In this document: positions 4,550 to 46,664 of the stretch, piece by piece | Position numbering within the stretch: the stretch's first letter is position 1 | Layout: each line of letters opens with the position of its first letter | IMG/VR virus record: IMGVR_UViG_3300049027_000140 | Span: 1 to 64,000 of that record | Source: a virus | Strand: one strand, 5' to 3' | Length of the DNA: 64,000 bases | Program-made: the position numbers and the translations under genes | Notes under the pieces: generated by a model | Database searches by the model: none | What the model was told of the DNA's origin: nothing | What the model saw: only the letters and a program-made list of their open reading frames with translations

Positions 4550-4578
4550 TTGCGCGACCATACGTCGCGACGTATCAT
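4550..4578 (+). promoter_or_regulatory. sigma70 promoter TTGCGC-17-TATCAT with operator ATACGTCGCGACGTAT (4560-4575)
   Basis: third copy of same palindrome; divergent from 4409-4437 promoter. Confidence 0.8.
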
Positions 4579-4585
4579 GGTCTGC

Positions 4586-16068: not shown

Positions 16069-16998
16069 TCATGCAGCCTTGGTGTTCGCGACGGGGTGGA
16101 GGTCGATAATCACGCCCTGCTCCTCGATGCGGTTGATGGTCGGCGGGCCATACCGCTCCTCGAGCTCAGCGATCGTGCGCCCGCTGGTGATGAACGTCGG
16201 CCTCCCGCGGTCCTCGCAGCGGTCGTAGATCACATCGCGGATGACGGCCGGGTCCTCCTCGAACCCCACCTCATCAAGGATCAGCAGCGTCGCGCGCTGG
16301 GCGATGCGCTCGAGTTCCGCCAGCTCACCGAGCCGCGTCTCACGGCGCGCCCGTCCGAGCTTCAGGCCGGATACCACCCTGACGCCGCGCGCGAAACGGA
16401 ACGCGTTGGCGTCAAGTCCCCCTTGCAGGGCCTCGTCGAGGATGCGGTGCGCGCACGCGATTGCTGTCTTGCTCTTGCCAATGCGCGTTGGCCCGACGAG
16501 AAGCACGTTACCAACCTTCCGCTTCCAGACGGCGCGCTCGATGAGCGGTAGCGCTGCCTGCGGGTTCGCCGACCGCCGCGCCGCCTCGCGCGCCTTCTGC
16601 GTTGCATCCGCAAACTCCTGCTTCCCCACGCGGCACCACTCGAGCGAATCCGCGGCGCTCGCCGCGGACCCCACACGAGAGACCGAGTCGTACGCCTCCG
16701 CGAGCAGCGCGAGTCGCTGCCGCCGGCGGTCCTTCTCGGCGCACGGCGCGCAGTACCCGCCGCGGCGCTCGACCGGCTTGTCGCACCCGCCGGCGCAGCG
16801 GAACACGAAGTCCTTGGGCGGCTCGATGCCTGCCCGGCGAGCAAAGAGCCCGACGAGTTCGTCGAAGCCGCTGTCCTGTGGTCCTGCTGGGGCCTCAATG
16901 CGCCTGCGCTCTTCCACCTCACGCAGCATCCGGACGTCGTCCTCAGTGAGGTCGCCGGATGCGTCGCCCGTGTCGTCGATCTCGTGCTCGGTGCTCAT
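16069..16998 (-). CDS. DnaC/IstB-like AAA+ helicase loader
   Basis: Walker A GPTRIGKS, Walker B LLILDE, RPTFITS, N-terminal Cys motif; follows initiator gene. Confidence 0.85.
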   Translation of the reverse strand: MSTEHEIDDTGDASGDLTEDDVRMLREVEERRRIEAPAGPQDSGFDELVGLFARRAGIEPPKDFVFRCAGGCDKPVERRGGYCAPCAEKDRRRQRLALLAEAYDSVSRVGSAASAADSLEWCRVGKQEFADATQKAREAARRSANPQAALPLIERAVWKRKVGNVLLVGPTRIGKSKTAIACAHRILDEALQGGLDANAFRFARGVRVVSGLKLGRARRETRLGELAELERIAQRATLLILDEVGFEEDPAVIRDVIYDRCEDRGRPTFITSGRTIAELEERYGPPTINRIEEQGVIIDLHPVANTKAA

Positions 16999-18203
16999 AT
17001 CCCGTCCTGCTCAAGGTGAAGTGCGAGCTCCGCGGCCCGCTTTCGCTGATGGGCCGCTCGCTCGTCTGGGTCGGTCCGACCGCCCTGGAACTGCACCACG
17101 CGGCCCGATCGCGGCCCCGTTGTCGGCTTGCCACCCTGAAGCCACTCCGCCCACTTCGGCGGCGTGAACCCCTTCTCGAAGTGCTCCTGGCCGGACTTCG
17201 CCCGCCTGTACTCCGCGGAACTGGCCCGAATCCACGCGGTGGCGGCTTCGCCCGTGAGTGGCTGTCCGTCGGCGTCGAGCGCGTACGCCTTCAGGATCGG
17301 CCAGAAGACCGACTTCTGCGGTGGCACCGCGAACGGTGCCCCGGTAACGTCGGTCTGCCCCTGCGCGTAGGCCTCGGCGTAGCGCTGCCCTGCCGGCGGC
17401 TCGTCGGCTGCGCGCGCAGAGCTCCGGGGTGCACGGCGCGCGGCTTTCGCCGGCGCCGCCGCACCCGCCGGCGCCATGGCGCCGAACAGGGGCAGCGGGC
17501 CGGTGACCGCCGCCCGCTTGGGCGACTCGACCGGCGGCGCCGGGCGCGCGGAGGGCATCGGGCGGACGCTGGCAGGCGTCGGCTCGGGGTCGCCGCCGCC
17601 ATCGAACTCCGGCGTCCCGGCCACTGCGCCCACATCGGACCCCTCCACGCGCGCGGCGCTAGCCGGCGCGCAGTCCCCCGCAGGGGGGTGGTCTTCCTTG
17701 GGTGCTTCCATGGGAGATTCCCTGAGAGATTTGTGTCCGGTTACCGGACCCCTGCCGTCCGGTAATCGGACCCCTGCCGTCCGGTAATCGGACCCCTGCC
17801 GTCCGGTAATCGGACTGGTCCGATTATCGGACTGGTCCGGCAGCTGGACTAGTCCGACCATCGGACTGGTCGCGGGAGCCTCGACCGGCGGCGACGGCGC
17901 GCGGACGACGCTGCCGCCGCTGGTCCGGACGAGGTACATCGTCGAGGCGCGGCCGCCTGGGCCGGCGGGCGCGCACCCCTGCCGCTCGATCCAGCGCGCC
18001 GCCTCGAGCTCGTTCAGGCACGTCACGACCGTGCTCCTCGCGAGGCCGGTCATCGCAGCCAAGCGAGACAGCGACGGCCAGGCGCGGTCGGAATCCCGTG
18101 CGTGGTCGGCCAGCACCAGCAGGACGAGCCGGTGCGACGCCGACATCTGCTTGGGTGAGAGGGCCTCCAGGACCCGCATCACCTCGAAGATGGCGAGCGC
18201 CAT
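16995..18203 (-). CDS. phage replication initiator (N-terminal winged HTH, lambda O analog)
   Basis: RLVLLVLADHA...AWPSLSRLAAMTGLARSTVVTCLNELE; internal iterons. Confidence 0.85.
   Translation of the reverse strand: MALAIFEVMRVLEALSPKQMSASHRLVLLVLADHARDSDRAWPSLSRLAAMTGLARSTVVTCLNELEAARWIERQGCAPAGPGGRASTMYLVRTSGGSVVRAPSPPVEAPATSPMVGLVQLPDQSDNRTSPITGRQGSDYRTAGVRLPDGRGPVTGHKSLRESPMEAPKEDHPPAGDCAPASAARVEGSDVGAVAGTPEFDGGGDPEPTPASVRPMPSARPAPPVESPKRAAVTGPLPLFGAMAPAGAAAPAKAARRAPRSSARAADEPPAGQRYAEAYAQGQTDVTGAPFAVPPQKSVFWPILKAYALDADGQPLTGEAATAWIRASSAEYRRAKSGQEHFEKGFTPPKWAEWLQGGKPTTGPRSGRVVQFQGGRTDPDERAAHQRKRAAELALHLEQDGI
17735..17866. repeat. replication origin iterons: 7 copies of GTCCG-N5-(C/T)GGAC
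   Basis: copies start at 17735, 17757, 17779, 17801 (22-bp period) then 17818, 17835, 17852 (17-bp period). Confidence 0.85.
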
Positions 18204-18928
18204 CAGTGCGCCTCGTGGGGAAGGATGTCGTCTCCCACCCGGGATCCGTATTCCACGCCGGCGTCGAGGGCCGCTGTAGCTCCCATCTCGCTCGGGTCGA
18301 TGCACTCATTCTCGTCATCGGCCATGCGCTGCTCAGCAACGGCCATGTAGTGTTGGGACAGCGCCTCGTTGATTCGGTCGACGACCACGGCGACGCTCTC
18401 GACGGACGTGGCCGCGCGCCTGCCGTCGAGGCGGGCCTGAGTCAGCGGGTTGGTCGGGGCGCTGATCTCGGAGGCGAGGTACTTCGCGTTGAGCAGCGTC
18501 GCTAAGTCATCGTCGGACAGGACCCCTGTGTGCCCGAACGTGACAACGTCCGCGTCCGCGATCTTGTCGCCGATTGGCATTCCCTCAGCGATGCCGAGGA
18601 TGAACTGCACCTGCTCGTCCGTGAACCCATGCATGGCAGGCGCCTCTCGAGGCTTCCGCTTCTGCTCCTCCGGGAAGGCCCACCGCATCCCATCGATGAA
18701 GCCAATCAGACGCGGATCCGCGCGGAACCACTCGCCGTGGAGCCGCAGGTCGGCGAAGCGCTCGTGGAGGCCCCGCTCGTGCTGCGGGCTCCCGGGGGCG
18801 AACGCGAGCAGCTTCAGCGGCTTTGAGTTGCCGGTCTGGAGCGCCGAGAGCCGCGCAAACGGGTCCCCGCCCGTGTAGCCGATCTTGATGGCCCCGTCGG
18901 GGGCCTCCTGGATGAAGTAGATCGGCAT
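18203..18928 (-). CDS. GIY-YIG superfamily (T5orf172/MUG113-like) protein
   Basis: IYFIQ...IKIGYT...RLSALQTG...ERGLHERF...GEWF. Confidence 0.85.
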   Translation of the reverse strand: MPIYFIQEAPDGAIKIGYTGGDPFARLSALQTGNSKPLKLLAFAPGSPQHERGLHERFADLRLHGEWFRADPRLIGFIDGMRWAFPEEQKRKPREAPAMHGFTDEQVQFILGIAEGMPIGDKIADADVVTFGHTGVLSDDDLATLLNAKYLASEISAPTNPLTQARLDGRRAATSVESVAVVVDRINEALSQHYMAVAEQRMADDENECIDPSEMGATAALDAGVEYGSRVGDDILPHEAH

Positions 18929-19266
18929 CAGGCGGCCCTCCGCGTGCGGCCCGCCGGCGTCGGCAGACCGAGGTCACGGGCGGCCATCTTGGCCCCGTGC
19001 ATGACCGACGTGTGGTCGCGGTCGAACAGGGCGCCGATCGATGGGTAGCTCCACCGCCGTTCCTCGTGGAACCACAGCCAGATCCGGTGTCTCACACGCA
19101 CGACGTGGGCATGCCGCCGCGTGCCGAACACGTCCTCCAGCAGGACGTTTCCGTCTATGCAGAATTTGTTGATATCTCCCAGCAGTCCGAGCTGGTCGAG
19201 GTGGGCCAGCCGGCGCTTCAGGTTCTTGACTTGGTCAGCATCCGGCGATAAGGATTCCTGCGTCAC
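18928..19266 (-). CDS. stand-alone DnaA C-terminal-like HTH protein
   Basis: SYPSIGALFDRDHTSVMHG matches DnaA domain IV motif. Confidence 0.8.
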   Translation of the reverse strand: MTQESLSPDADQVKNLKRRLAHLDQLGLLGDINKFCIDGNVLLEDVFGTRRHAHVVRVRHRIWLWFHEERRWSYPSIGALFDRDHTSVMHGAKMAARDLGLPTPAGRTRRAA

Positions 19267-20333
19267 GAGACCACCTCTCGTTCTGAGACGCCGACGGCTC
19301 CACCCGCCGGCGTTTCGCTTTTTGTGGCGCGCCTGCTCGCCGCCGCGAACAAGCCAAGCTGTCCACGGCTCGCAGCCCTTGCCGCCACGCCGTCGCTCTC
19401 CGCGTCGAACCGCGCGGCCATGGCGCGGCAGTAGGTCTCCTCGCGCTCGACCAGGATGCAGCGCCGGCCGTTTCGGACCGCGCCGATCCCGGTCGTCCCA
19501 GAGCCCGCCGTCAGGTCGATGACCGGCTCGTCCGTGTCCTCGCGGTCGATGAAGAGCTCGAGCAGACGCACCATGAGCTCTTCCGGCTTCTGCGTGGTGT
19601 GGACGCGCTCCTCGCCGTCGGGTGAACCGCGGTCGAGAACGATCGGGATCGCCCAGTCCGCCGGGAGCCCGCCGCCGTTCCAGCGCTTCGCCTTCGGCTT
19701 CCCGCGAGCGCCGCGCGCATGGTGGAGGAGGATCGCCTCGCGGCTGACGGCGGGCCGGTCGCCGGAGACCTGCGGCGTCGAGCAGAGCTTCCGCCACGAG
19801 CCCTCGCGCACGTACTCGGCCCCTGCGGCAGCGAGCGAGAGACGCCAAAGCCATGTCCCCTCGGTGTCGGCGAAGGTCGCGATCCAGCGGGCGGCCAGCG
19901 CGACGGCCGCGCGGGCGAGCGATCGGCGGTCCCGTGGCCAGAGCGGGTCGAAGCCGATCTCCATCTTCCGGCGCTTGTTCGCGGGGCTCGTGAGGGAACC
20001 GCCGGCCTTCGAGCCGACGACCCCGTGCCGCTTTCCGAGAGACCGCGCGCTCGCGTGCACGTGGGGCGAGTAGGCCGGGTCGAATGCGACGAACCCGCGC
20101 ACGCCGGCGGCGGCGAGCTGAAGCCCGATAGCGGCGCCGTCTCCGTGGTAGATGGTGACCAGGCCGCGCTGGTAGAAGGGCGTGGGGAGCCCGGTCGGGA
20201 CGTCCAGCGGCTCCGCCAGCATCGCTTGTCGCTCGGCCTCGACCAGCAGAGTCCAGAGCGCGGCGCCGTTGGCGTCCTCGAGGACGAGCTCCTTCAGAGC
20301 GGTCAGCAGAGCGGGCTCGATCTCCGGCTTCAC
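19263..20333 (-). CDS. DNA amino-methyltransferase (N6A/N4C, beta class)
   Basis: IYHGD...FDPAY (motif IV variant), HTTQKP, VIDLTAGSGTTG (motif I). Confidence 0.85.
   Translation of the reverse strand: MKPEIEPALLTALKELVLEDANGAALWTLLVEAERQAMLAEPLDVPTGLPTPFYQRGLVTIYHGDGAAIGLQLAAAGVRGFVAFDPAYSPHVHASARSLGKRHGVVGSKAGGSLTSPANKRRKMEIGFDPLWPRDRRSLARAAVALAARWIATFADTEGTWLWRLSLAAAGAEYVREGSWRKLCSTPQVSGDRPAVSREAILLHHARGARGKPKAKRWNGGGLPADWAIPIVLDRGSPDGEERVHTTQKPEELMVRLLELFIDREDTDEPVIDLTAGSGTTGIGAVRNGRRCILVEREETYCRAMAARFDAESDGVAARAASRGQLGLFAAASRRATKSETPAGGAVGVSEREVVS
19285..19325 (+). terminator. GC hairpin plus T-run (antisense to operon)
   Basis: GAGACGCCGACGG-ctccac-CCGCCGGCGTTTC then gctttttg. Confidence 0.4.
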
Positions 20334-20977
20334 GCTCCCCTCCCCGTCCACACCTCGACGAGCACGCAGCCTTTCCCGGGCGGCGCACTCTCGACCCACG
20401 CCGCGAGGTCGATCTCGCCCTGGGAGTCCCCGCGGAGGTACCCCAGCTCGGCCGGGCCCATCTGCTCCTGCATCCTGGCCCAGACATCCGGCGAAAGGTG
20501 ATCCGGGCGCTTGCGCTTCCCGATCTGGAGCCGGTCCAGTGGGACCTTCGTGAAACCCGTGTCGTAGTCCTTCACGCGACCGCTGAACCGCACGATGCGG
20601 ACCATCGGCCGGCCGGTGAGGGGAGCCGCCGCGCGCGCGCCGATCTGCTCCAGCATGCGCTTCAGCACGCGGGCCTTGAGCTTCTTCAGCGCCCACGTGC
20701 CGAATCGCCCCATCTCCACGAGGCGGTTCGTCGTCGGCGCGTCTTCGAGCGGCAGCACGCAGCGGAGCACCAGAGAGCCCACGCCCTCCACGCGCTCGAC
20801 GGCTGGCTGCACACGCCCGCCCTTGAGCTTCTTCTCCGGCGGCGGCGGCTCGGCGAGGCGCTGGTCGACGAACGCGAGCGCCGCAGCCACGTCGAACGCC
20901 TTGGCGGGCTTCCTCGGCTTCTTCGCGGCGGCCGGCTCACCCGTGGTGGCCCGGCGGCGGAACGCGGCGCGCCTCAT
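20330..20977 (-). CDS. RusA-like Holliday junction resolvase
   Basis: PTTN...KDYD...KVPLDRL...GYLRGD acidic pattern, typical position. Confidence 0.6.
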   Translation of the reverse strand: MRRAAFRRRATTGEPAAAKKPRKPAKAFDVAAALAFVDQRLAEPPPPEKKLKGGRVQPAVERVEGVGSLVLRCVLPLEDAPTTNRLVEMGRFGTWALKKLKARVLKRMLEQIGARAAAPLTGRPMVRIVRFSGRVKDYDTGFTKVPLDRLQIGKRKRPDHLSPDVWARMQEQMGPAELGYLRGDSQGEIDLAAWVESAPPGKGCVLVEVWTGRGA

Positions 20978-21123
20978 GACGGCTCCTCCTCTTGCGCGGG
21001 CGCCTCGGACTCGTCCTGCTTCGGCTCCACCGGGAACATCTCCAGCGTCCTCTCGTCACGGATGTCGCGACAGGCGCACTCGCCGCCGCCGAGCAGTGGG
21101 CACCACGGCCTGTGGATTGTCAT
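20974..21123 (-). CDS. small Cys/His protein
   Basis: coupled; HxxWC...CxC. Confidence 0.45.
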   Translation of the reverse strand: MTIHRPWCPLLGGGECACRDIRDERTLEMFPVEPKQDESEAPAQEEEPS

Positions 21124-21713
21124 GTGGCCTCCTGCGCTGCGCGAGCCTGCAAGGACGGTATCAGAGCGCAAGTCGCGACTCTGTCATGCGCGGAGCGGAG
21201 GCGCCATGTGGGGAGAGTAGGAATCGACGATGTGCGTTGTCGGTGCAAAGCGCGCTCGCGGTTGCGCTTCGCCGTCAGCTCGTCTCGACGGCATCCGCAA
21301 CTCCGCACCTTCTCGCGCACGAGGTCGTCCTTGAGCACGGTGACGATCTGCCCGCAGGTGCAGCGGCAGCGCACGCGGAGCCGGGTGCGGCGCCCGCGCC
21401 GGCGCTGCGTCACGAAGGCGAGCGTCCGGAGGCGCCCGTGCCACCTTCGGACCGGCGCGCACCGGCGCCGCTTGCCGGCGGAGACGATCTCGATGGGCTG
21501 CGCCTCGAGGATCTCGACGTGCCGCAGCAGCAGCCCGGCCACGAGCAGGTGCAGAATCGCCGTGTGCTCGAGGCGGTAGAGTAGCGCCGGACCGACGAAG
21601 CGCGCGCCAGAGTCGCGAACCTCCTCGGCGGCGATCTCGGCGGCGTGCGCCTGGATGGCGGCGAGGTCGCAGCCGGCGACGTTCGCGGCAAGGGCGAGGA
21701 CGTCGAGCGTCAC
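21120..21713 (-). CDS. protein with CxCG...SCGC zinc module typical of HNH/AP2-associated phage proteins
   Basis: RCRCTCGQIVTVLKDDLVREKVRSCGC. Confidence 0.6.
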   Translation of the reverse strand: MTLDVLALAANVAGCDLAAIQAHAAEIAAEEVRDSGARFVGPALLYRLEHTAILHLLVAGLLLRHVEILEAQPIEIVSAGKRRRCAPVRRWHGRLRTLAFVTQRRRGRRTRLRVRCRCTCGQIVTVLKDDLVREKVRSCGCRRDELTAKRNRERALHRQRTSSIPTLPTWRLRSAHDRVATCALIPSLQARAAQEAT

Positions 21714-22336
21714 TCGGCGCTCCCGGCGCGCTTCGGCGCCCTCAGCCCGCGGTACTTCTCCAGCACCTGCTCCGCGGTGGGCTGCTGCTTCCGCGGCGCC
21801 GCCGGGACGGGTGCAGCACTCTCCACGGCGGGGCGCGCACGCAGCGCCGGCGGCGGCATCGGGCCGCCCGGGGCGCGCGGGCCGCGAGGCCGGCCGGGCC
21901 CCCGCTTCGGCGGCGCAGGCGGCTCCGGCGCAGCGGCGGGCTCCACGGCGTGAGGCTCGTCGTCCAGCGGCTCCACGGGCTCCGGCTCGACCTCGGCGTC
22001 GCCGGCCGCCTCGATGCGCTCCGCCAGCGCGAGGAGCTTGCCTCCAGCGAGCAGCAGCCCGGCCGCGTACCGGCGGAGCAGCCGCGCCAGCGCCGTCCCG
22101 GCGAGGCGGAGGAACGCCGGGCGCTGCTGGATCTCCCGCACGACCTGCTCCGCGTACGCGTGCGCGCGCTGCATCTCCTCCGGCGAGAGCCACTGCGTGA
22201 AGTCGACGGCGGGTGTGGGCTGCTGCGGCTCTTGCTGCACATGGCTCCGATCCGGGCGGCGCGCGGCGCGCCCTGCTGGCGTGGCGGTCGGCTCGGCCGA
22301 CATGTCGATGGCGAAGGCGAGTCCAAGCTGCGTCAC
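21710..22336 (-). CDS. hypothetical protein, Pro-rich C-terminus with AT-hook-like RGPGRPR
   Basis: coupled ORF. Confidence 0.55.
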   Translation of the reverse strand: MTQLGLAFAIDMSAEPTATPAGRAARRPDRSHVQQEPQQPTPAVDFTQWLSPEEMQRAHAYAEQVVREIQQRPAFLRLAGTALARLLRRYAAGLLLAGGKLLALAERIEAAGDAEVEPEPVEPLDDEPHAVEPAAAPEPPAPPKRGPGRPRGPRAPGGPMPPPALRARPAVESAAPVPAAPRKQQPTAEQVLEKYRGLRAPKRAGSAE

Positions 22337-22659
22337 AGGGGACCTCCGGAAACGACGTACGGGTGGAGCTCCAGCCCGGGCTCGCGGTACCGGTCGAGCT
22401 CAGCGACGGCGCACCCACGCCACCAATCGGAGCTCGCGAGGTCGCCTTCGCCGCGGCAGCGGAGCGCGTGGCTCGCGAACGCGGCGGCGCTCCGGACGAA
22501 GTGCAGGCGGCCGGTGAACCGCACGGCCGCTGCGGCGTCGTAGAGAACGCGGGCGCGAGCGACGTCGTCGGTCGCGGCGTCGATCCCGGCGAGGTCCCCG
22601 CCGTGACCGATGGCTCGGAGGTCGGCGGCGACGGCGGCCAGCAGCTCGTCAAGCGTCAC
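22333..22659 (-). CDS. hypothetical protein
   Basis: coupled ORF. Confidence 0.55.
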   Translation of the reverse strand: MTLDELLAAVAADLRAIGHGGDLAGIDAATDDVARARVLYDAAAAVRFTGRLHFVRSAAAFASHALRCRGEGDLASSDWWRGCAVAELDRYREPGLELHPYVVSGGPL

Positions 22660-23120
22660 GGGCGCCTCCCTTCAGCGGCGCGGGCGGCGCGCATCCCGAT
22701 CAGCGCGGCGATGACGCGGACGACGATTTGCTGATCCGTCGTGCCGTCCGCCACGACGACCATGCCGATCGGGCTGGTGCGGCCGCGGCGCTTGCCCTCC
22801 GCGATGAAGCGCCGCGCCCCGTCGAGGCTGCTCTTCACCTGGACGCGGTACAGGCGATCGTCGTCGCACAAGACGACGATGTCCGCGCCGATCCGGTCCT
22901 CTCGCGCGCCGCCGGCGCGTACGCCGACGATCCAGTTCGGCAGCGCCGCAGCGCGGAGCGCGGAGAGCACGCGGCGCTCGTTCGCGAAGCCGCGTACCTC
23001 GCCGAGGCGCTCTCGGGCGGCGCCGGTCGCGGCGGCGACCTCGGCGGCCGTGGCTCCGCGGCGGAGCAGGGCGGCCTCACGCGCGTCCTCGGCGCGGTCG
23101 ATCAGGCCGGCGAGGCTCAT
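22656..23120 (-). CDS. PD-(D/E)XK-family nuclease-like protein
   Basis: G..NE...ED..GADIVV...VQVKSS. Confidence 0.65.
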   Translation of the reverse strand: MSLAGLIDRAEDAREAALLRRGATAAEVAAATGAARERLGEVRGFANERRVLSALRAAALPNWIVGVRAGGAREDRIGADIVVLCDDDRLYRVQVKSSLDGARRFIAEGKRRGRTSPIGMVVVADGTTDQQIVVRVIAALIGMRAARAAEGRRP

Positions 23121-23401
23121 TCGGCACCGTCCTCTCCGCCGACGCCGCTCATGTCGCTGTCGCCGGCGTCGGTGGCGCACACGGGCATCGCGTCGCAGGC
23201 GGCGTGGCAGTCGTCCCGCAGCACGCCGCAGTCGCGGTGGCACGAGTCGCACGCGTCCTTGACGAGGCAACCCGTCAGCGCGAGCAGCGACAGGAGGCCG
23301 AGCGCGCGCTTGGCCCGTTCGGACAGCGCGAGCAGCGCCTCGCCGCGCGCGGCAGCGAAGATCAGCAGGGCGCTGACGAACACGAGGACGGTGCCGCTCA
23401 T
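23117..23401 (-). CDS. Cys-rich putative lipoprotein
   Basis: lipobox-like LALTGC followed by six Cys. Confidence 0.55.
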   Translation of the reverse strand: MSGTVLVFVSALLIFAAARGEALLALSERAKRALGLLSLLALTGCLVKDACDSCHRDCGVLRDDCHAACDAMPVCATDAGDSDMSGVGGEDGAE

Positions 23402-23528
23402 CGGGAAGCCCTCCCGGCCTGGGCATCGCGGCCCGGGGCGCGCCTGGCGCTGGGCGCCCGGGACGTGTGCGCGCTCTGGGCGCACGAAGGCGCGGCGGGG
23501 GCCGCGGCAAGGACGTCCAGCGGGGGCA

Positions 23529-23918
23529 TCACGCCTCCCCCGGAGCGGTCTCGTGGACCGAGCCGACGTGGTGGGAGGCCGCGTGGACCGCGCGCGCGTT
23601 GCCGGCGCTCCGGCACCAGGTCGCGTGCTCGTCGTCGTTGGTGGTGCCGCAGTCGTCGCAGGCGGCGGGGGCGACGTAGCGGCGCGGGCCGTCAGCGAGG
23701 CGCTCGTACAGGCGGAAGGTGCGGGGGCGGCGGCGTCGCATGGGGCTCTCCTGGTGTCCGCCGGCGATGACGCGCAGGTCGGGCTGGTAGTGGCAGCAGC
23801 AGGCGCAGGGGTCGGTGCCGATCCGGTGGTCGCAGAGCTCCGGGTCGACGTGGTCGCAGCAGCAGCCGACGTCGCCCGCAGCGTCGCGCCACTCGGTGGG
23901 GGTGACGGGGCGCATCAC
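23529..23918 (-). CDS. Cys-rich hypothetical protein
   Basis: coupled ORF. Confidence 0.5.
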   Translation of the reverse strand: MMRPVTPTEWRDAAGDVGCCCDHVDPELCDHRIGTDPCACCCHYQPDLRVIAGGHQESPMRRRRPRTFRLYERLADGPRRYVAPAACDDCGTTNDDEHATWCRSAGNARAVHAASHHVGSVHETAPGEA

Positions 23919-24121
23919 GAGGCGGCTCCGTCGGTGAGGCATGCCGGGCAGGTCACCGCGCCGCGCTCGAACGCGTAGAGGCGGCCGTCGTCGCGGAGGT
24001 ACACGCCATCCGGCAGACCCTCTGGCTGCCCGCTCCACTTCGGCGTGTCCCACGAGCCGTCGCAGGCGATGCGGACGTGCGGCTGGCTAGCCTCGTCGGA
24101 GAGGTGGACGGGCGCGCTCAC
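23915..24121 (-). CDS. small zinc-binding hypothetical protein (H...C...VTCPAC)
   Basis: coupled ORF. Confidence 0.6.
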   Translation of the reverse strand: MSAPVHLSDEASQPHVRIACDGSWDTPKWSGQPEGLPDGVYLRDDGRLYAFERGAVTCPACLTDGAAS

Positions 24122-24845
24122 CGGCCACCTCCCGCCGCGCCGGAGCGCGAGGAGGCGGAGGTGGTGGCGAAAGTGACCGTCGAGCCGCGAGTGGCGTGGA
24201 TGGCGTCGAGCGCCGCGGTGAGGTCAGCCTTGGACCGCGGCTTCCGCAGATCGTCGTTCGACGAGAACGCGCGAACCCCGGCGTCGGTGACCACGCACAG
24301 CGCTATGTGCTCCGCGCTGTACGGCCAGCGAGCGACGCCGCAGTCGCAGATGATGTGGACGATCGTCCGGCTGGCCCGGGTGCGCCCGACCTCCAGCGGC
24401 AGCGACCCGGGCTCGACGATGAGCGCCGCCGTCCCGTCGCCGCTGCGCTGGAGCAGCTGAAGCGGCTCGGCCCACGCGAAGGTGCCGTCGTCGCAGTACC
24501 CGAAGCCGCCGGTGGGCGCGAACGTGGCACTGAAGCCAGCTAGAAGGCGGCCCAGCCTCGCGTTGTTCTCTTCGGCGAACCTGTCACCGGCCGGACCCAC
24601 GCCGACGGGCACGTGAGCGAACGCGAGGAACCCGTCGAGCCACCACGACAGGAGAACGTGCAACGCGTAGGCGTCGTAGACGCTGTAAGCAGAGTCGCTC
24701 TGCGTCAGGAACTGGGCCACCCACGTTTGGCCGGCGTCGCTGTAGAAGAGGCGGAGGCAGTGCTCGACCTCCTCCGGGTCCATCCCCTTGGCCCGGTCGC
24801 GCCAGTAGCAGTTCTGGAGCTCTCGCTCGTGAAGCGTGAGCGAGC

Positions 24846-24849
<4 letters not shown>
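24118..24849 (-). CDS. hypothetical protein, translationally coupled to integrase stop
   Basis: ATGA overlap at 24846-24849. Confidence 0.65.
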
Positions 24850-26536
<1,687 letters not shown>

Positions 26537-26540
<4 letters not shown>

Positions 26541-26818
26541 GGCTTCTGGCTCCCGACCGTCGAGAGGGACAGCAGGCCCTTCCGCTGGGCGATCTGCTGC
26601 GCGCGGCGCGCGGTCACCTCATCGACGGGCCCCGAGGGGCGATAGGGCGGGCGCGGACCGCGACGCGACTGGGTTACCGGCGCCGCATTGGCTGGGAGGG
26701 GCGGCTTCGCGTCGGCGCCGTCTGCGCCAGGCTCCTCCAGCACCGCGAGCATCGCCTTGAGCCCAGCCGTGACAGCGCGTCGAAGCTGATCGTCCATGGT
26801 CACCTTCCTCCCCTCCAT
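26537..26818 (-). CDS. small basic protein upstream of int (possible recombination directionality factor)
   Basis: coupled to integrase start; function by position only. Confidence 0.5.
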
Positions 26819-26933
26819 CACGTCACCCACCCTTCCGCCGGCACCTGCTCCTCGCTGGCGCCGTAGTTGACGTCGCCATCGCGCCTCGGGCGTTCCTCGT
26901 GCTCGCGCGCGTCGTCTGCCTCCACGTCGCGCA

Positions 26934-27659
26934 TCAGCATGCGGCCCTCCGGGAGAGGTACACGTCGCACGCCATGAGCCCGTCGACCGCCCACTCGACG
27001 CCAACCGCATCTTTCAGGAACCACGTGATGCGGCTGAGCGCGCGGCGCCGCTGCCAGTCGGCGACGGCGCCGTGCTCCGGGAGAGCCGCCTCGAGCATCT
27101 CGATCGCCGAGGCGGTGGCGCCGATGACGTCCGCCGCCGGCGCCTCATCCTCCGCCAGCGAGCACATCGCCGAGGTGAACGCCGCCGGGCGCCTCGGGGT
27201 CGCGTCGGCGATCGTGGCGAGGATGAGCCGCCGGGCGTCGTCCCGCGTCCACGGCGTCGGCTCCTCGGGCGAGCGCGGCGGCGCCAGCGGCTCAAGCGCG
27301 GCGACGGGCGGCGGGGCCGGGAGCGCGGGGGAGACCTCGCCGGCGTAGTCGAAGCCGTTCTCGAGGAGCCAGCGCGCCGTCGCGATAGGATCCTGGAGGC
27401 GCTGTCCGTCGACGAGCAGCGGGTGCCCGCTGCCGGTCCACCGCTGCCCCTCACGCGGCGCCGGGGCGACGACGCGTAGCCCCACCGGGATCGAGTCGAT
27501 GCGGCAAAGCGGCGCGTCATCGGCTGAGGCGCCGCGGGTGACCCACCACCTCTCATCGAACGCGCGCGTGATCACCCAGCCGACGTTGAGGGCCCACTCC
27601 CACGCGACCCTCGCCCCCGGCTCGAACACCTGCGGCACCTCCGTCTTCAGCTCGCGCAT
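26934..27659 (-). CDS. hypothetical protein
   Basis: GGAGG RBS; coding-like composition. Confidence 0.6.
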   Translation of the reverse strand: MRELKTEVPQVFEPGARVAWEWALNVGWVITRAFDERWWVTRGASADDAPLCRIDSIPVGLRVVAPAPREGQRWTGSGHPLLVDGQRLQDPIATARWLLENGFDYAGEVSPALPAPPPVAALEPLAPPRSPEEPTPWTRDDARRLILATIADATPRRPAAFTSAMCSLAEDEAPAADVIGATASAIEMLEAALPEHGAVADWQRRRALSRITWFLKDAVGVEWAVDGLMACDVYLSRRAAC

Positions 27660-28072
27660 ACGTCCTCCACGGCGCTCTCCAGCGCCTGCACGGCGAGACG
27701 CTGCGGCGCCTCGCATCCTCCCGCGATCCGCTCCAGAGCTCCGCGCAGGTGGCGCGCCTCCGCGCCGACGACCGCCGCCCGGTCGCACTCGGCGCGCAGG
27801 TGGCGGTGGTCCTCGACGCGGAGGATCGTCAGCCCGTGCTTGTCGATCTCCCGCACGAAGTCCGCCTGCTCGACCACCTTGGCGCGCGCGGCGTCGCGCT
27901 CTCCGCGGAAGCGCTTCGCCGTCGCGATGATCCTCACCAGCCGGGCCCGCATCCGGCGCGCCCTCGCCTCGAGCACCGCGGTGCTCGCGTCCCGCCGCGT
28001 CTCGGCGACGTGGTAGGCGATGAGCGCGGCGCCGAGGAGCCACGGGACCAGCTGCACCCCCCGGGCCCTCAC
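27647..28072 (-). CDS. membrane-anchored coiled-coil protein
   Basis: N-terminal TM, GTGA coupling. Confidence 0.55.
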   Translation of the reverse strand: MRARGVQLVPWLLGAALIAYHVAETRRDASTAVLEARARRMRARLVRIIATAKRFRGERDAARAKVVEQADFVREIDKHGLTILRVEDHRHLRAECDRAAVVGAEARHLRGALERIAGGCEAPQRLAVQALESAVEDVCAS

Positions 28073-28416
28073 GATGCCAGCTCCACGGGTGCGGGTGAGC
28101 CGTCGCGGCGAACGATGCCGCTCTCCGTGGGCTCCGGGCGCTCGGTACCGAGGAGTTCCTCGAGAGCCTCGCGGGCGTCTCTGTACGCGAGCGCCTCCGC
28201 CTTGCCGGCGCCCTGGGACACCCTGGCCGCGTCCGCGCGCCTGTAGCGGACCCACGCCTTCGAGATGTCGCCGAGGAGACGGTGCGCTTCGGCGTTGCGC
28301 TCGGCCTGGTACCAGAGCCGCTGCCGCGTCCGCCGTACCGCGGAGACGCCGCCGGTGAAGAGGCCAGCGAGGAAGCCGAGGACGACTCCAGTGGTGACGA
28401 TCGCGAACAGGTTCAT
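28069..28416 (-). CDS. membrane-anchored hypothetical protein
   Basis: N-terminal TM; coupled. Confidence 0.6.
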   Translation of the reverse strand: MNLFAIVTTGVVLGFLAGLFTGGVSAVRRTRQRLWYQAERNAEAHRLLGDISKAWVRYRRADAARVSQGAGKAEALAYRDAREALEELLGTERPEPTESGIVRRDGSPAPVELAS

Positions 28417-28904
28417 GTGCGCCCCTCCTTCGCTCGCCGCGCCTGGGCGATGCGGATCAGGTCGTGTCCAAGTAGTTCAACAGCATCGGTCGGGAGTGCT
28501 TCGCTGTAGGCTTTCGCCACCTCGACGCCCCAATCGGGCCGCCTTTCGGCGACGAGAAGCAGGTGCTCCAGGGCGAACGGCTTTGTCGGCTCGTCGCTTA
28601 GCGCGAGCGAGACATGCTGCGGCTGCACGTCGACCACGCACGCAAGCTCACTGAACGAGATCGGCCTGAACGCACCACGCACGAGTTTCACGGCGCGCTT
28701 GCGCGCCTCGTGCCTGACGCCGCTCTGGAGCTGATAGGAACTGCGCGCCTGCGCAGGTGACGGGACCACCGGCGCAACCACATTGCGCGCCGCGACCTGT
28801 GCCGCAAGCTCTGCGATATGGATGACGCCGGCGCCGCTCGGCGGAGACGCACTCGCGCGCTCTCCGGATGGGATACTACTGCTCTTGTCACGGAAGATGC
28901 TCAT
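28413..28904 (-). CDS. CII-like HTH regulator
   Basis: SFSELACVVDVQPQHVSLALS HTH-like; downstream of cro. Confidence 0.5.
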   Translation of the reverse strand: MSIFRDKSSSIPSGERASASPPSGAGVIHIAELAAQVAARNVVAPVVPSPAQARSSYQLQSGVRHEARKRAVKLVRGAFRPISFSELACVVDVQPQHVSLALSDEPTKPFALEHLLLVAERRPDWGVEVAKAYSEALPTDAVELLGHDLIRIAQARRAKEGRT

Positions 28905-28952
28905 TGTTCTACGATCCCCCGCAGACGGTTGGGGCCGAGCGACGCACCAGAG

Positions 28953-29423
28953 TCACTCGGCGACATTCTCTCTCGCGTGATCGCCGGCATCGTCCCGGCA
29001 AATGAGGACGGCGGCGGAGGCTACATGCCCCATGGGGGCGGGATAGGCGGCGTCGATCTTCCGCTGGATCGCGTCGAGGAGGTCCTCGACAGACACGGCA
29101 TCGAGGCCGGTGGCAATGACGCCGCGAGCGCGCTCGAGGTCGGCCTCGATGGCGGCGATGCGCGCACGGGCCTCGGTCATCCCAGCGAGTGCGCCTTGAT
29201 GGGCCTCGGCCTGGACTCGGGCGGCAGCCTCGAATGCGTCGGCGCGCGCCCGCTGCTCGCGCTCGCGGTGCTGGGCGTTCTCCAGGAGCGCCTCAAGGGC
29301 GGCGATACGCTCGCTCTTGCCGTCGCGCTCCGGACGGTCGACGCCGTCCCAGGTCGCCTCGAGGTCGGCGGCGGGCGGCGCGCTGGTGACCACCTCGGGG
29401 TCGGCATTCTCGTGCGGGTGCAT
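28953..29423 (-). CDS. coiled-coil hypothetical protein
   Basis: GGAGG RBS. Confidence 0.6.
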   Translation of the reverse strand: MHPHENADPEVVTSAPPAADLEATWDGVDRPERDGKSERIAALEALLENAQHREREQRARADAFEAAARVQAEAHQGALAGMTEARARIAAIEADLERARGVIATGLDAVSVEDLLDAIQRKIDAAYPAPMGHVASAAVLICRDDAGDHARENVAE

Positions 29424-29426
29424 GGG

Positions 29427-30062
29427 CTACCTCCCACCCGCGGCGGCGCGGGCGCGGAGCGCTTCGAGGCGCTCGCGGCGCGCCTGCTGGTACTGATGCA
29501 AGCCGCGGATGGGCGCAAACCGGAGCGCGACGACCACGCCGTTTCGCGTGAGCCACGACCGCCTCGGGACCGCGCCGCCGGTCCAGAGCTCAATCATCTC
29601 GGCGGCGATCTCGTCCGGAGTCGACCGGCCGCAGCGCCAGTAGCAGATGCTCTGGGTCGAGCACGGGATCTCAGCGGCCGCCTGGGCCTGGGTTACCCCG
29701 CGGGAATTGAGGAACTCGTCGAGCAGAAGCTCTCCGTCGCGGCCGTCGAACCCCGCATCGAACTCGCGGAGCACCTCGCCACGCACGCGGCCACCAATCG
29801 TATCGATGTAGTCCGCTACTGGCCCGGTCGGCAGGAACCACTCGGTGGTGCCGTCGCCGGCCTCCAGGTACATGCGCGCGTGGCGGAAGTCCCAATGCCA
29901 GTCCTTCTCTTCCCGCTGGCCACCCGGGGCCGTGGCGATGACCTCGAGCGCATCGCCGATGGAGGCGGAGATGTCGGCAGCCCGGCGCTCAGGGCGCACC
30001 GAGTGACCGACCTTGATCGGGCCGCCATGCGGGCGCTGAAGGAAGTAGACGACGGAGCCCAC
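29427..30062 (-). CDS. GIY-YIG (T5orf172-like) domain fused to C-terminal Cro/XRE HTH
   Basis: VYFLQ...IKVGHS..PERR...EWF then TQAQAAAEIPCSTQSICYWRCGRSTP...IELWTGGAV. Confidence 0.75.
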   Translation of the reverse strand: MGSVVYFLQRPHGGPIKVGHSVRPERRAADISASIGDALEVIATAPGGQREEKDWHWDFRHARMYLEAGDGTTEWFLPTGPVADYIDTIGGRVRGEVLREFDAGFDGRDGELLLDEFLNSRGVTQAQAAAEIPCSTQSICYWRCGRSTPDEIAAEMIELWTGGAVPRRSWLTRNGVVVALRFAPIRGLHQYQQARRERLEALRARAAAGGR

Positions 30063-30065
30063 GGG

Positions 30066-30392
30066 TCAGGCTGCCCCTCGAGCCGCAGCCATCGCCTCGC
30101 GCTCGCTCTCGACCAACCAGTCATCGGCGAGGATCGTCGGCTTGCTGAGCTTGCCGCCCTTGACCGCCTTCCGGCTCCAGAGCGCAATGTGGGCGCGGCT
30201 GATGGTGTCGGGGCGGGCGATACCGTGCCGCCAGTTGTGGATGGTCGCCCTCGCGTACGGGGGCGACTTCCCGACGAGGACGGTGATCTCGGAGGCGACC
30301 TCGGCGGATGAGAGGCCGCGCTCGTCGACGAGCTCGTCGAACTTCTTGGACCCGGGGGTCGGGTACGGACCCGGCTTGGCTGTTCTTCTCAC
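30066..30392 (-). CDS. Cro-like HTH repressor, leaderless
   Basis: LSSAEVASEI...RATIHNWRHGIARP; divergent from CI-like gene; GTG 6 nt after TACAAT. Confidence 0.7.
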   Translation of the reverse strand: MRRTAKPGPYPTPGSKKFDELVDERGLSSAEVASEITVLVGKSPPYARATIHNWRHGIARPDTISRAHIALWSRKAVKGGKLSKPTILADDWLVESEREAMAAARGAA

Positions 30393-30398
30393 GCCCCA

Positions 30399-30428
30399 AT
30401 TGTATGCACGACAAGACGAACTGCGCAA
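30399..30428 (-). promoter_or_regulatory. lytic (cro) promoter TTGCGC-18-TACAAT with putative operator TCGTCTTGTCGTGCATAC
   Basis: hexamers at 30423-30428 and 30399-30404. Confidence 0.65.
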
Positions 30429-30486
30429 GGGGGAACCGGTGACGGAAGTTTTTTCCGCAATACATGCGGGGTGTTACAGGAGAACG

Positions 30487-31032
30487 ATGCGCAGATCCGA
30501 AGCGAGGAAGGTGCTCGCCGCGTATGTGGCCGACCGGCTCGGGCGCGAGTGCGCCGAACGACGCGGCGCGCAAGCGGAGATCGCTCGGGCGCTTGGCTTC
30601 AGCCGTGGGCACCTCAGCAACGTGCTGCGGGGCCAGTACTCCGTCGGCGAGGACCTAGCCGCACGATTGGCCGACTACTGGGGGATGACTTACGACCAGC
30701 TCCATGCGGAGGCCGAGAAGTGGGGCAAAACGTCTCAGCGACCGGCCGCAGTGGATAGACCAGAGCCTTGGCGCCGATTGAAGGATCGGCCGGAATGGAC
30801 AGCGAGCCTCGAATCTGCTCGGGCGTTCTACAAGGATATCCCGGACGACTATTTCCTGCGCGTTGGCGCCATCCTGGACGACGTGAGCCGTCACATTGAC
30901 GCGCAGTTCATCGGCGAAATGGCGAGGGTGATCTGGAGTGCCGAGGTCCGTGAGTCTGCCGTGCCCCCCGTATCTGTGGTGGAGACAACGAAGCACAGTC
31001 ACGGGAAAGACAAAAAGTCTGGCGGCAGTTGA
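30487..31032 (+). CDS. CI/ImmR-like XRE repressor (no S24 peptidase domain)
   Basis: AQAEIARALGFSRGHLSNVLRG HTH; AGGAG RBS; divergent from cro. Confidence 0.8.
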   Translation: MRRSEARKVLAAYVADRLGRECAERRGAQAEIARALGFSRGHLSNVLRGQYSVGEDLAARLADYWGMTYDQLHAEAEKWGKTSQRPAAVDRPEPWRRLKDRPEWTASLESARAFYKDIPDDYFLRVGAILDDVSRHIDAQFIGEMARVIWSAEVRESAVPPVSVVETTKHSHGKDKKSGGS

Positions 31033-31103
31033 ACCACAAACGGTATGGTGAGATCACCGATGTAGTGCTCTGGGCCCGGCCGTAGCCCAGAAGGGGGTGG
31101 TCA

Positions 31104-31550
31104 GTGACTATGACGCCGAACAACCGCTTGGCCGTAGAACACGCCAATGACGGTTGTGGGTGCGAAATGCACCGAGGGACACCGACCCGTAGGGATCTCG
31201 ATGCATTCCCGCATCCGTACGCGATCGCAGACGTTCTGGGATTCCGCGTCGTCGAGGTACCTTCCCTCCCCGCCGGCGCCGAGCAGATGACGGACGGCCG
31301 CACCATCTGGGTCGCGTGGGCACACGACCAGCGCCAGCGCGGCAGCAGGCTCTTCCGCGCCATTGCCGCGGCCCTGCTCTCCGCCCAGGGGGCGCCGCGC
31401 TCGGAGGCTGCGGCCTACGAGCTCGCCGCGAAGCTGGCCGTGCCGCCGGAGCTCATGCGACGCGTGGGCCTGGACGAGACCATCCGCCGGCAGGCATGGG
31501 CGACCGAGTGCCTGATCCGCTGGTGGTGGAACGCCGCCGTCGTGGAGTAG
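31104..31550 (+). CDS. ImmA/IrrE-family homolog lacking HExxH (probable pseudo-peptidase)
   Basis: HPYAIADVLGFRVV...TIWV...RQRGSRLF-RAIAA-ALL...EAAAYELAAKLAVP aligns with RQRFTLAHELGH...ExEAxxFAAxLLMP. Confidence 0.7.
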   Translation: MTMTPNNRLAVEHANDGCGCEMHRGTPTRRDLDAFPHPYAIADVLGFRVVEVPSLPAGAEQMTDGRTIWVAWAHDQRQRGSRLFRAIAAALLSAQGAPRSEAAAYELAAKLAVPPELMRRVGLDETIRRQAWATECLIRWWWNAAVVE

Positions 31551-31561
31551 GCAGCCGGCTC

Positions 31562-31616
31562 TCGTCGTTCGCGCAATACATTTCCGGTTGACGTATTGTC
31601 TTGCGAGCAATACCAT
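31562..31616 (+). promoter_or_regulatory. rightward early promoter TTGACG-17-TACCAT with two TyGTC-N6-GCAATAC operator-like sites
   Basis: -35 31588-31593, -10 31611-31616; sites 31562-31579 and 31596-31613. Confidence 0.75.
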
Positions 31617-31654
31617 GGTCTCCGTCAGGCCGCGCTTGCGGCCGAGGAGGCCCG

Positions 31655-31978
31655 ATGCTCTCAGCCGTCTCCGCCCTTGCTTCTCCGCCGCGCACCGCGC
31701 CGGCCGTTCCGTTCGCTGACCGCGCCGTCGCTGCGCTGCTTCACGGGGGCGGCGAGCTCGCCAGCGCCCGTCGCTCGCGGCCCACCGGGCGGCTGCGGTA
31801 CTTCGCCGAGCCCCGGCCCTCCGGGCGCGTGGCGGTGGAGGTCGTCGAAAGCCCCTATGGGGCCGAGCGGAGCGCGCTGGAGCACGCGGCCCGGCTGCTG
31901 CGTGGACGCGGGTTCAGGGTGCTGGAGCTTCCGAAGAGCGGGCGCCTCATCGTGTGCGCGGGCCGGAGGGTGCAGTGA
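31655..31978 (+). CDS. hypothetical protein (first gene of rightward operon)
   Basis: GAGGAGG RBS. Confidence 0.6.
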   Translation: MLSAVSALASPPRTAPAVPFADRAVAALLHGGGELASARRSRPTGRLRYFAEPRPSGRVAVEVVESPYGAERSALEHAARLLRGRGFRVLELPKSGRLIVCAGRRVQ

Positions 31979-36973: not shown

Positions 36974-37828
36974 ATGCTGACGGAATCCCAACGCGCAGCC
37001 AGGATGGCGGGGCTCGGCAGTTCGGATATCGCTGCGGTGGCCGGCGAGCACCCGTACAAGAACGCGCACGCCGTCTGGCTGGAGAAGCGCGGGCTCGTGG
37101 ATCCGCAGCCCGAGACCGACGCGACGTGGCTGGGCCACCAGATGGAGCCCATCATAGCTGCCCGGTACGCGCAGGAGATGGGCGTGCGCATCGTTCCAGG
37201 ACCCGGCACGGTCGCGCATCCGGAGCACCCGTGGGCGCTCGCGACGACCGACTACGAGCATGCGGACGGCGCGCGCGTGGTCGAGTGCAAGTGGGTTGGA
37301 ATGCGGCCTATGGCACACTGGTCAATGGATGCGGACGGAGCGCCGATCTACGTGAATCTGCAAATGCAGCATCAGATGTTCGTGCGAGGCATCAACCGCG
37401 CCGACTGCGCTGTCATCTTCGGCGCAACTGCCGAGTTCAGGATCTACGAGTTCACGCGGGACAACGGGATAATCGATGCTATCTTCCGCATCGGCCAGCG
37501 CTTCTGGCAGCGAGTGCTCGACGGCGAGCCGCCGCCCATCGACGAGACGGAGGAGGCGCGGCAGACGCTGCTCGCGCTCTACCCGACGAGCTACGCGCCG
37601 CTGAAGCCGGCGCCGCCGGAAGCTGACCGGTGGTTCCAGGAGCACGAGGCGGCGGACGCCGATGCGGAGGCGGCGCTGGCGAGGAAGAAGCTGGCGGCGA
37701 ACAAGCTGCGTGAGGCGATCGGGGATGCCGTGGGGATCGAGGGTCCCTTCGGCAAGGCGACTTGGAAGGCGGACAAGAGGGGCGTGCGCACGCTGCGCAC
37801 CTACCCGAGGAAGGAGCGCGCCGCGTAG
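36974..37828 (+). CDS. YqaJ/lambda-type recombination exonuclease
   Basis: GLGSSDIAAV...WLEK...GHQMEP...ATTD...VECK...QMQHQM. Confidence 0.9.
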   Translation: MLTESQRAARMAGLGSSDIAAVAGEHPYKNAHAVWLEKRGLVDPQPETDATWLGHQMEPIIAARYAQEMGVRIVPGPGTVAHPEHPWALATTDYEHADGARVVECKWVGMRPMAHWSMDADGAPIYVNLQMQHQMFVRGINRADCAVIFGATAEFRIYEFTRDNGIIDAIFRIGQRFWQRVLDGEPPPIDETEEARQTLLALYPTSYAPLKPAPPEADRWFQEHEAADADAEAALARKKLAANKLREAIGDAVGIEGPFGKATWKADKRGVRTLRTYPRKERAA

Positions 37829-37842
37829 GCGCGGAGGACGAG

Positions 37843-38718
37843 ATGGCGAATCAGGCACCGGCGAACATGACGACGACCAACGGCAACGGCAGCGCGGCTG
37901 TGGTGAGGGGGCCGCAGGCGCGGCTCAAGGCCATCAAAGAAGAGCTGGCCAAGGCGAGCAAGACGCTGGCGGTGCTGCTGCCGAAGCACGTCACCATCGA
38001 CCGCATGGTCCGGATCGTGACGTCATCGGTCAGCAGGACCCCTGCCCTACTCGACTGCACGCCGCAGTCGATCGTCCTCGCGACGGCGCAGGCGTGCGCG
38101 CTCGGTCTGGAGCCGGGGACCGCGCTCGGGCTCGGCTACCTCGTGCCCTTCAAGAAAGAGGCGCAGTTCATCCCAGGTTACCGCGGCCTGGCGAAGCTCG
38201 CGGTGCAGAGCGGCGAGGTGCAGTGGATCCAGTCGCGTGTTGTCTACGAGAAGGACACTTTCTCCATCGACTACGGCACCGAGCAGAAGATCGTCCACGC
38301 TCCCTTCCTCGCCGAGGAGGACGCCGGCAAGGTCATCGGCGCCTACGCGGTCGCGGAGATGAAGAACGGCGCGAAGCTGTTCGAGTTCATGACGATCGCT
38401 CAACTGGAGGGCATCCGGCGCCGCTCGAAGTCGGCGGACGACGGCCCGTGGAAGACGGACACGGAGGAGATGTACCGGAAGACGACCGTCCGCCGCCTCT
38501 GCAAGTCGCTTCCGCTCTCCGAGGAGCGCCTGGAGCGCGCACTTCACCATCAGGCGGTGGCCGAGGCCGGCGAGGCGCCCGACTACGGCGACGTGATCGA
38601 GGTGCTCGGCGACGTGGCCGAGGACGCGACGAACGGCGGCGACGGAGCGCCCGCCCCCGAGCCATCCCGCACGGACGCCGCGCGTGACCGTCTCCAGGCG
38701 CGGGCGGGCCAGTCGTGA
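37843..38718 (+). CDS. recT: RecT-family single-strand annealing protein
   Basis: LLDCTPQS...LGLEP...YLVPF...QFIPGYRGL...PWKTDTEEMYRKT..RRLCKSLP. Confidence 0.92.
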   Translation: MANQAPANMTTTNGNGSAAVVRGPQARLKAIKEELAKASKTLAVLLPKHVTIDRMVRIVTSSVSRTPALLDCTPQSIVLATAQACALGLEPGTALGLGYLVPFKKEAQFIPGYRGLAKLAVQSGEVQWIQSRVVYEKDTFSIDYGTEQKIVHAPFLAEEDAGKVIGAYAVAEMKNGAKLFEFMTIAQLEGIRRRSKSADDGPWKTDTEEMYRKTTVRRLCKSLPLSEERLERALHHQAVAEAGEAPDYGDVIEVLGDVAEDATNGGDGAPAPEPSRTDAARDRLQARAGQS

Positions 38719-46152: not shown

Positions 46153-46664
46153 TGCCCGAGATCCTCCTCTCCCCCGGCGACATCTTCGCCAGCGGCTGCG
46201 AGGCGCTGGTCAACCCGGTCGACACCACGGCCGCCATGGGTGCCGGCCTCGCGCTGGCGTTCACCAAGCGCTTCTCGCAGCAGACGACGTGGTACCGCGA
46301 GCACGCCCGCCGCGGGTTCGCTGAGGCCGGCAGCGTCTACCACGTGCTGCCGCGCCGAGACGAGGAGAGGCTCTCCGCCGCGCGCTGGGTGCTGGAGCGG
46401 CACAGGGCCGGCGGACGCGCGCAGCCGCTCGTGCTGTTCGCCACGACCAAGGCGTCGTGGAAGAAACCCTCCGACCTCCGCTGGGTCATCGGCTGCTGCC
46501 AGGCGCTCGTGGACGTGGTGGCCGAGCTCGGCATCCGGTCGATCGGCATCCCGGCGCTGGGCTGCGGCGAGGGAAAGCTCTCCTGGACCGACGTGCGCCC
46601 GCTGCTGCTCGGCGCGGCGCAGCAGATGCAGTGCGAGCGCGTGGTGGTGTTTGAGCCAAGGTGA
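46149..46664 (+). CDS. macrodomain (DarG/TARG1-like ADP-ribosylhydrolase)
   Basis: GDIF...ALVNPV...MGAGLALAF...FATTKASW...SIGIPALGCGEGKLSW. Confidence 0.88.
   Translation: MMPEILLSPGDIFASGCEALVNPVDTTAAMGAGLALAFTKRFSQQTTWYREHARRGFAEAGSVYHVLPRRDEERLSAARWVLERHRAGGRAQPLVLFATTKASWKKPSDLRWVIGCCQALVDVVAELGIRSIGIPALGCGEGKLSWTDVRPLLLGAAQQMQCERVVVFEPR

Follow-up and report, generated by a model that had tools for sequence, protein, structure and literature searches.

The window analysed here covers positions 1 to 64,000 of an IMG/VR virus record of 98 kb (71% G+C, with an estimated completeness of 78%). The source element is a large temperate phage of Sorangium-like hosts, or myxophage, and its host is a Sorangium-like myxobacterium, given that homologs of both genes discussed below were found in Sorangium genomes. 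These two genes, ORF A and ORF B, are oriented in the same direction, such that a gene for an XRE-family HTH protein lies immediately 5' of a gene whose product has an M78 (ImmA/IrrE) fold (Table 1). Both have GC3 values of the coding type (0.74 for ORF A and 0.83 for ORF B), ORF A is preceded by AGGAG located 5 nt upstream of its ATG start codon, and the two are probably co-transcribed.

A third gene diverges from ORF A across a short intergenic region. Its 120-aa product appears HTH-like by eye, yields no family match in Pfam, PHROG or NCBIfam searches, and has syntenic counterparts of 102 aa in L001, a related, complete and terminally repeated phage of 126 kb, and of 94 aa in L002, a prophage of Sorangium sp. 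So ce388. This gene is a candidate for a Cro-like or alternative switch regulator. It heads a leftward chain that extends from the switch through the integrase to an O-like initiator and a DnaC-like loader, and the placement of an integrase gene inside an early operon is unusual. On the same strand reside two paralogous genes for T5orf172/GIY-YIG-like proteins that match phrog_8130 and phrog_4284. The product of the copy closer to the switch carries a C-terminal HTH fusion, and a syntenic copy of this gene is present in L001 (2324-2899).

Table 1. Genes, sites and sequence elements in and around the ORF A-ORF B cassette (window coordinates).
Feature	Position	Strand	Remarks
O-like initiator and DnaC-like loader	16069-18305	minus	
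Leftward chain	16069-30428	minus	From switch through integrase to initiator and loader
T5orf172/GIY-YIG-like gene	18203-18928	minus	Paralog of 29427-30062
Tyrosine integrase	24846-26540	minus	
T5orf172/GIY-YIG-like gene	29427-30062	minus	C-terminal HTH fusion
Divergent 120-aa leftward gene	30066-30428	minus	HTH-like by eye; heads leftward chain running to integrase
Divergent intergenic region, 58 bp	30429-30486		Between leftward HTH gene and ORF A; repeat and palindrome
CGCAATACAT	30456-30465		Within CCGCA-N5-TGCGG
ORF A, 181 aa	30487-31032	+	XRE-family HTH regulator, putative immunity repressor; Pfam HTH_31
ORF B, 148 aa	31104-31550	+	M78/ImmA-IrrE-fold pseudo-peptidase; start GTG 31104 or ATG 31110
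R85-A86-I87-A88-A89	31356-31370	+	HExxH position, active-site helix 76-94; aligned column for column on H-E-L-G-H (hhalign)
E101	31404-31406	+	Third zinc ligand position; aligned onto downstream Glu of HExxH relatives (hhalign) and of HGxxH relatives
Region just 3' of ORF B stop codon	31564-31616	+	Direct repeats, inverted GTATTG, promoter-like site
16-nt direct repeats	31564-31579, 31598-31613		Terminal GCAATAC
Promoter-like TTGACG-17-TACCAT	31588-31616	+	Faces rightward genes
Small gene	31635-31978	+	No family match
RecT	37762-38718	+	
Sigma factor	46661-47527	+	

The sequence GCAATAC occurs three times in the 64 kb, with every copy in an intergenic region that borders the A-B cassette on one side or the other. 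One copy is located 24 nt upstream of ORF A, in the intergenic region that also holds the short palindrome listed in Table 1. The other two form the ends of a pair of direct repeats situated around the promoter-like site that follows the ORF B stop codon. At the same two places, L001 and L002 carry different repeats of their own (TTTACAT in L001 and four copies of CTGAACT in L002). These element-specific repeats thus look like putative operators flanking an immunity cassette, and it is mainly from them, and so indirectly, that ORF A is taken as the putative switch repressor. In L002, the cassette-flanking repeat (3313-3340 and 4505-4595) forms a CTGAAC/GTTCAG palindrome, from which the repeats of the window differ. 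The L002 repeat resembles the GTTCAG half of the myxobacterial LexA box, and a pattern for this box matched no more often than expected by chance. Rightward of the promoter-like site 3' of ORF B, the first gene encodes a small protein, and this gene keeps its position in L002 (4624-5004).

The earlier note had described the upstream protein as a repressor that lacks a LexA-type autoprotease domain, and the domain content of ORF A agrees with that description. HTH_31 is its sole Pfam match (3.2e-6, residues 17-70), Peptidase_S24 (PF00717) is absent from the Pfam results at E<=1, and an AF2 model (pLDDT 84) is composed of helices throughout, including residues 97-170 of the C-terminal half. The model places an XRE HTH domain at approximately residues 2-85, a second helical domain at approximately 97-170, and a disordered tail thereafter. 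The XRE domain has many repressor matches with Z values of about 8. In a Foldseek search DdrO ranks top over 138 columns, and since the rmsd is 15 Å, the two-domain resemblance is suggestive at most and weak beyond the HTH. Homologs in Sorangium genomes are 59% identical and bear the JGI name VapI. A search of 151 genomes of the family with ORF A as the query returned only three distant matches. A comparison with the HigA-type antitoxin model TIGR02607 gives 24 bits, which is below the cut-off.

ORF B is far less accessible to sequence searches. It has no match in Pfam, PHROG or NCBIfam, Peptidase_M78 (PF06114) does not match ORF B or any of 33 relatives at E<=1, a word-based homolog search recovers only ORF B itself, and a comparison of its profile with PDB sequences gives chance matches only, the apelin receptor (E 0.07) among them. 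Exhaustive phmmer searching, however, recovers 38 relatives, and an AF2 model built with their alignment is predicted with high confidence (pLDDT 86, with a core above 95). Residues 1-28 are disordered, and residues 29-148 form a single domain with the order of elements of a zincin, namely a helix, three strands, a long helix (76-94) and a further helix (101-112). The protein has no further domain, and neither a membrane segment nor any other enzyme motif is present. All of the first 11 Foldseek ranks are occupied by M78 proteins (PrpR, PprI/IrrE and CapP). VIA-align, a search independent of Foldseek, matches the model to CapP (Z 11.3, 121 residues, 3.1 Å), PprI (Z 9.2, 111 residues, 2.4 Å) and PrpR (Z 7.5 and 6.9), whereas the next fold, that of generic zincins, reaches 5.4 or less. 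In the ESM Atlas, PF06114 clusters account for 28 of the 30 feature neighbours of ORF B. The view that this gene follows the ImmA/IrrE template is therefore upheld by predicted fold, by structure matches and by the profile alignment presented below, even though standard HMMs do not see it.

Relatives that retain the zinc-protease motif allow the active site to be located. With a family profile, 27 loci were identified among 201 Polyangiales genomes, 17 of which contain at least one, and most of the encoded proteins carry HELAH or HELGH. This profile reaches one protein (L012) at E 4e-10 that in turn passes the Peptidase_M78 gathering score (34.4 bits versus a cut-off of 22), and two further proteins lie at the threshold. 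When the close, histidine-less clade of the window is aligned with the HExxH relatives by hhalign (96.5%, E 8.6e-10, 104 columns), RAIAA of ORF B falls column for column on HELGH, exactly the replacement that had been proposed from the single sequence. In the reverse direction, the HExxH profile finds ORF B as its sole match in the 98-kb record (E 1.4e-9). The earlier note had also stated that the downstream glutamate is retained, which is correct for the window copy, where E101 occupies the position, but not for the histidine-less clade as a whole, in which this residue is variable. From sequence, ORF B is predicted to be incapable of zinc-dependent catalysis, which would rule out cleavage of the repressor by this chemistry, and because the whole zinc-protease site is gone, the protein probably acts through binding rather than cutting. 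Among the HELAH relatives (L007, L009, L010, L021-L024 and others), a histidine replaces glutamate at the third ligand (H-S-H-A-D-V). Most of these proteins score below the Pfam M78 threshold and thus constitute a poorly annotated myxobacterial M78 subfamily.

The loss extends well beyond a single gene copy. Among 77 family members, 23 have HExxH, 27 have H-G/A-x-x-H, four retain one histidine and 22 retain none, with the remaining member being a fragment (P0013) that is gapped at this position. HExxH is absent from all of the approximately 50 relatives taken from global databases. A quick maximum-likelihood tree made with IQ-TREE places ORF B in a clade of 14 members (SH-aLRT 97), and both histidines and the catalytic glutamate are missing from all 14; a sister group is of the H-G/A-x-x-H type. 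The tree omits the fragments P0002, P0013 and L025, the low-complexity matches P0015 and P0022, and the duplicates L001 (= P0004), L002 and L003 (= P0024). Motif states require seven changes on this tree, compared with 37 when labels are shuffled. Terminal branches within the histidine-less clade measure 0.4-1.2 substitutions per site, and 11 columns are invariant among 12 of its members, which are 33-63% identical.

These comparisons bear on the concern that close homologs might all retain HExxH while the window copy simply decays. What was found instead is an entire clade devoid of the motif, and the loss of the active site is, as judged from sequence comparison, old and inherited rather than the result of recent decay. 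The accompanying question of whether the loss is conserved under dN/dS<1 receives a divided answer. Conservation is evident in the clade, but the ratio for ORF B versus L001, the sole relative with DNA, is 0.51 (neighbouring genes 0.35-0.86) on a saturated dS (>1), and therefore adds little beyond being below 1. Together with the fold, these comparisons make it very probable that ORF B descends from an ImmA/IrrE-type zinc peptidase (MEROPS M78, COG2856) and is conserved although catalytically dead. A series from HExxH to H-G/A-x-x-H, in which the base is lost and the metal ligands are kept, and then to proteins with no histidine, accords with a step-by-step replacement of cleaving by binding. 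A profile of the histidine-less clade finds no member in 400 other Myxococcota genomes, GenBank phage records (50,697) contain no homolog of ORF A or ORF B, and no further loci emerged from two scans of metagenomes or from a second scan of viral sequences.

The pairing of the two genes is likewise conserved. A homolog of ORF A is located directly upstream, on the same strand, at eight loci (L001, L002, L004, L005, L007, L020, L026 and L029), which bears out the proposal of a repressor paired with a dead ImmA homolog. Partners of the ORF A type adjoin dead, HGxxH-type and HExxH-type proteins alike. A search for other proteins that could act in induction found no other M78 gene and no S24, ANT or Bro-N gene in the 98-kb record, and no M78 or S24 match in the complete relative L001. 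As the record is 78% complete, an induction gene could lie in its missing part.

Perhaps the most likely function for ORF B, although we advance it tentatively, is that of a signal-dependent, stoichiometric anti-repressor that does not cleave its target. ORF A would bind the GCAATAC repeats and thereby repress two promoters, the leftward one and the rightward one located 3' of ORF B. The ancestral state would have been a protease and its substrate, from which the catalytic base was lost first (as in HGxxH proteins) and the metal ligands later, with the fold, partner gene and position being kept while cleavage became dispensable. ORF B may thus keep the ancestral recognition of the repressor C-terminal domain without the ability to cut it, and could, on a signal, prevent the repressor from oligomerising or from binding DNA and so inactivate it stoichiometrically. 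An antirepressor that is co-expressed with its repressor needs a signal input, and no signal-input domain is evident in the 148-aa, single-domain ORF B, which counts against such a function.

Proteases of the ImmA/IrrE/CapP type provide the main SOS-independent route for switching on prophages, ICEs, stress regulons and defence systems. The arrangement in the window resembles that of ImmR/ImmA in ICEBs1 and phage phi105, in that an HTH gene comes first and an M78-fold gene follows directly 3' on the same strand, within the switch region of an integrating element. ORF B is also similarly small (148 aa versus approximately 170 aa for ImmA) and consists of one domain. It differs in carrying RAIAA in place of HExxH and in having no Pfam M78 match, and the A-B cassette points away from the integrase, whereas the known system is an immR-immA-int operon. 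IrrE(PprI)/DdrO and CapP/CapH provide the best structure matches to ORF B, DdrO ranks top for ORF A, and these systems share the logic of a protease and an XRE repressor. However, CapP and IrrE are active relatives that cleave their HTH partners (bioRxiv 10.1101/2022.04.27.489752; PMC6868357), and they are zinc peptidases equipped with an additional linker and a GAF domain that sense ssDNA or stress, whereas ORF B comprises only the peptidase-like domain.

Two precedents are closer in mechanism. As PMC6868357 relates it, citing Koberg 2015, the COG2856 protein Rir of Streptococcus thermophilus phage TP-J34 is needed for induction and blocks oligomerisation of the repressor Crh without cleaving it. 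Rir is thus a COG2856-fold partner of a prophage repressor, and the binding mode reported there is the one proposed above for ORF B. Rir keeps HEXXH, so that the absence of proteolysis, which was observed experimentally, is open to doubt, whereas the motif is gone from the clade of ORF B; the hosts also differ, being Bacillota for Rir/Crh and Myxococcota here. PrpR/RamB of Mycobacterium tuberculosis, the third-best structure match to ORF B, fuses an XRE HTH to an M78-like domain that is without the HExxH residues and has a non-proteolytic regulatory role (PMC6765138). PrpR is, however, a multi-domain chromosomal regulator of metabolism that binds CoA and a 4Fe-4S cluster via a GAF-like domain, whereas ORF B is encoded by a phage as a small protein of its own. 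Dead M78 domains (PrpR) and non-cleaving COG2856 partners (Rir/Crh) are therefore already on record. What is new is a stand-alone protein of ImmA size in the canonical ImmR/ImmA-like position of a phage switch, with its active site erased throughout a clade and with no detection by current family models. Also new are the graded intermediates inside the same family.

Several other explanations would accommodate the same genes. Expression in the lysogen is expected for an operator-bracketed cassette, and ORF B could be a passenger within it whose role is independent of the repressor, much as rexAB follows cI in the immunity cassette of lambda. Such a protein might serve in superinfection exclusion, defence or sensing, or might be the remnant of a toxin-antitoxin-like pair made of XRE and COG2856 proteins. 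Pairs of this kind are predicted to be toxin-antitoxin-like modules (PMC2701414), the faint HigA likeness of ORF A and the VapI label of its homologs point in the same direction, and dead M78 domains such as that of PrpR act elsewhere as ligand sensors (PMC6765138). We nevertheless regard a passenger role as unlikely, because the strict adjacency of HTH and M78 genes, kept at every locus examined, is the ancestral layout of protease and substrate, and because ORF B lacks the further domains and motifs named above. The chance that the protein is a hydrolase that uses other residues, or a functionless relic in decay, seems very small indeed. The presence of E101 in the window copy and the blindness of Pfam to ORF B could be read in its favour, but the catalytic residues have vanished from the entire clade and the third ligand is variable, while the ORFs are all intact, the fold is predicted with confidence, core columns are invariant and divergence is deep, none of which marks a relic.

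The identity of the repressor can also be questioned, since ORF A is co-directional with early-type genes (those for RecT and the sigma factor) and the leftward chain leads to the integrase. On that view the repressor would be the divergent HTH protein of 120 aa, ORF A would act as a Cro-like or early regulator, and ORF B would modulate an early lytic regulator. This assignment is improbable, given that a promoter-like site with shared repeats separates ORF B from the rightward genes and makes A-B a unit of its own, that in size ORF A fits the two-domain repressors of the CI, ImmR or DdrO type while the protein encoded leftward is small, and that replication genes are found in the leftward chain as well. 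There is also a slim chance that ORF B protects the repressor, as a shield, co-repressor or decoy, by binding it or by mimicking the protease. It would either block cleavage by HExxH-type M78 proteases encoded in co-resident prophages, ICEs or defence loci or stabilise the repressor on DNA, so that others could not induce the prophage. The occurrence of one repressor family beside HExxH-type as well as dead M78 proteins is compatible with protection, and the intermediate H-G-x-x-H clade resembles a natural substrate trap. Furthermore, HExxH relatives occur in three of four Polyangiales genomes that have a degenerate copy versus 13 of 197 that do not (Fisher p 0.0016), although this co-occurrence may simply reflect the large, prophage-rich genomes of one lineage. 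Protection also leaves the induction of the phage itself unexplained. The particular case in which ORF B is an anti-induction shield between mobile elements, occupying the cleavage region of the repressor or titrating activators to give immunity to co-resident HExxH M78 proteases while the phage is induced by a separate route, is quite improbable.

In the clade of ORF B, the complete loss of protease chemistry with retention of fold, partner and position offers a natural, sequence-level argument for regulation by binding alone, which in the accounts drawn on here had been suggested only by the disputed case of Rir/Crh. The series of HExxH, HGxxH and histidine-less proteins is ready material for testing when cleavage becomes dispensable. 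Because standard HMMs miss partners of this kind, prophage switches that employ them are annotated as a repressor and a hypothetical protein. Several Polyangiales genomes (loci L004-L029; genomes G066, G108, G118, G150 and G182) hold two or three family members at once, a pattern that could stem from an abundance of prophages or from cross-talk between elements.
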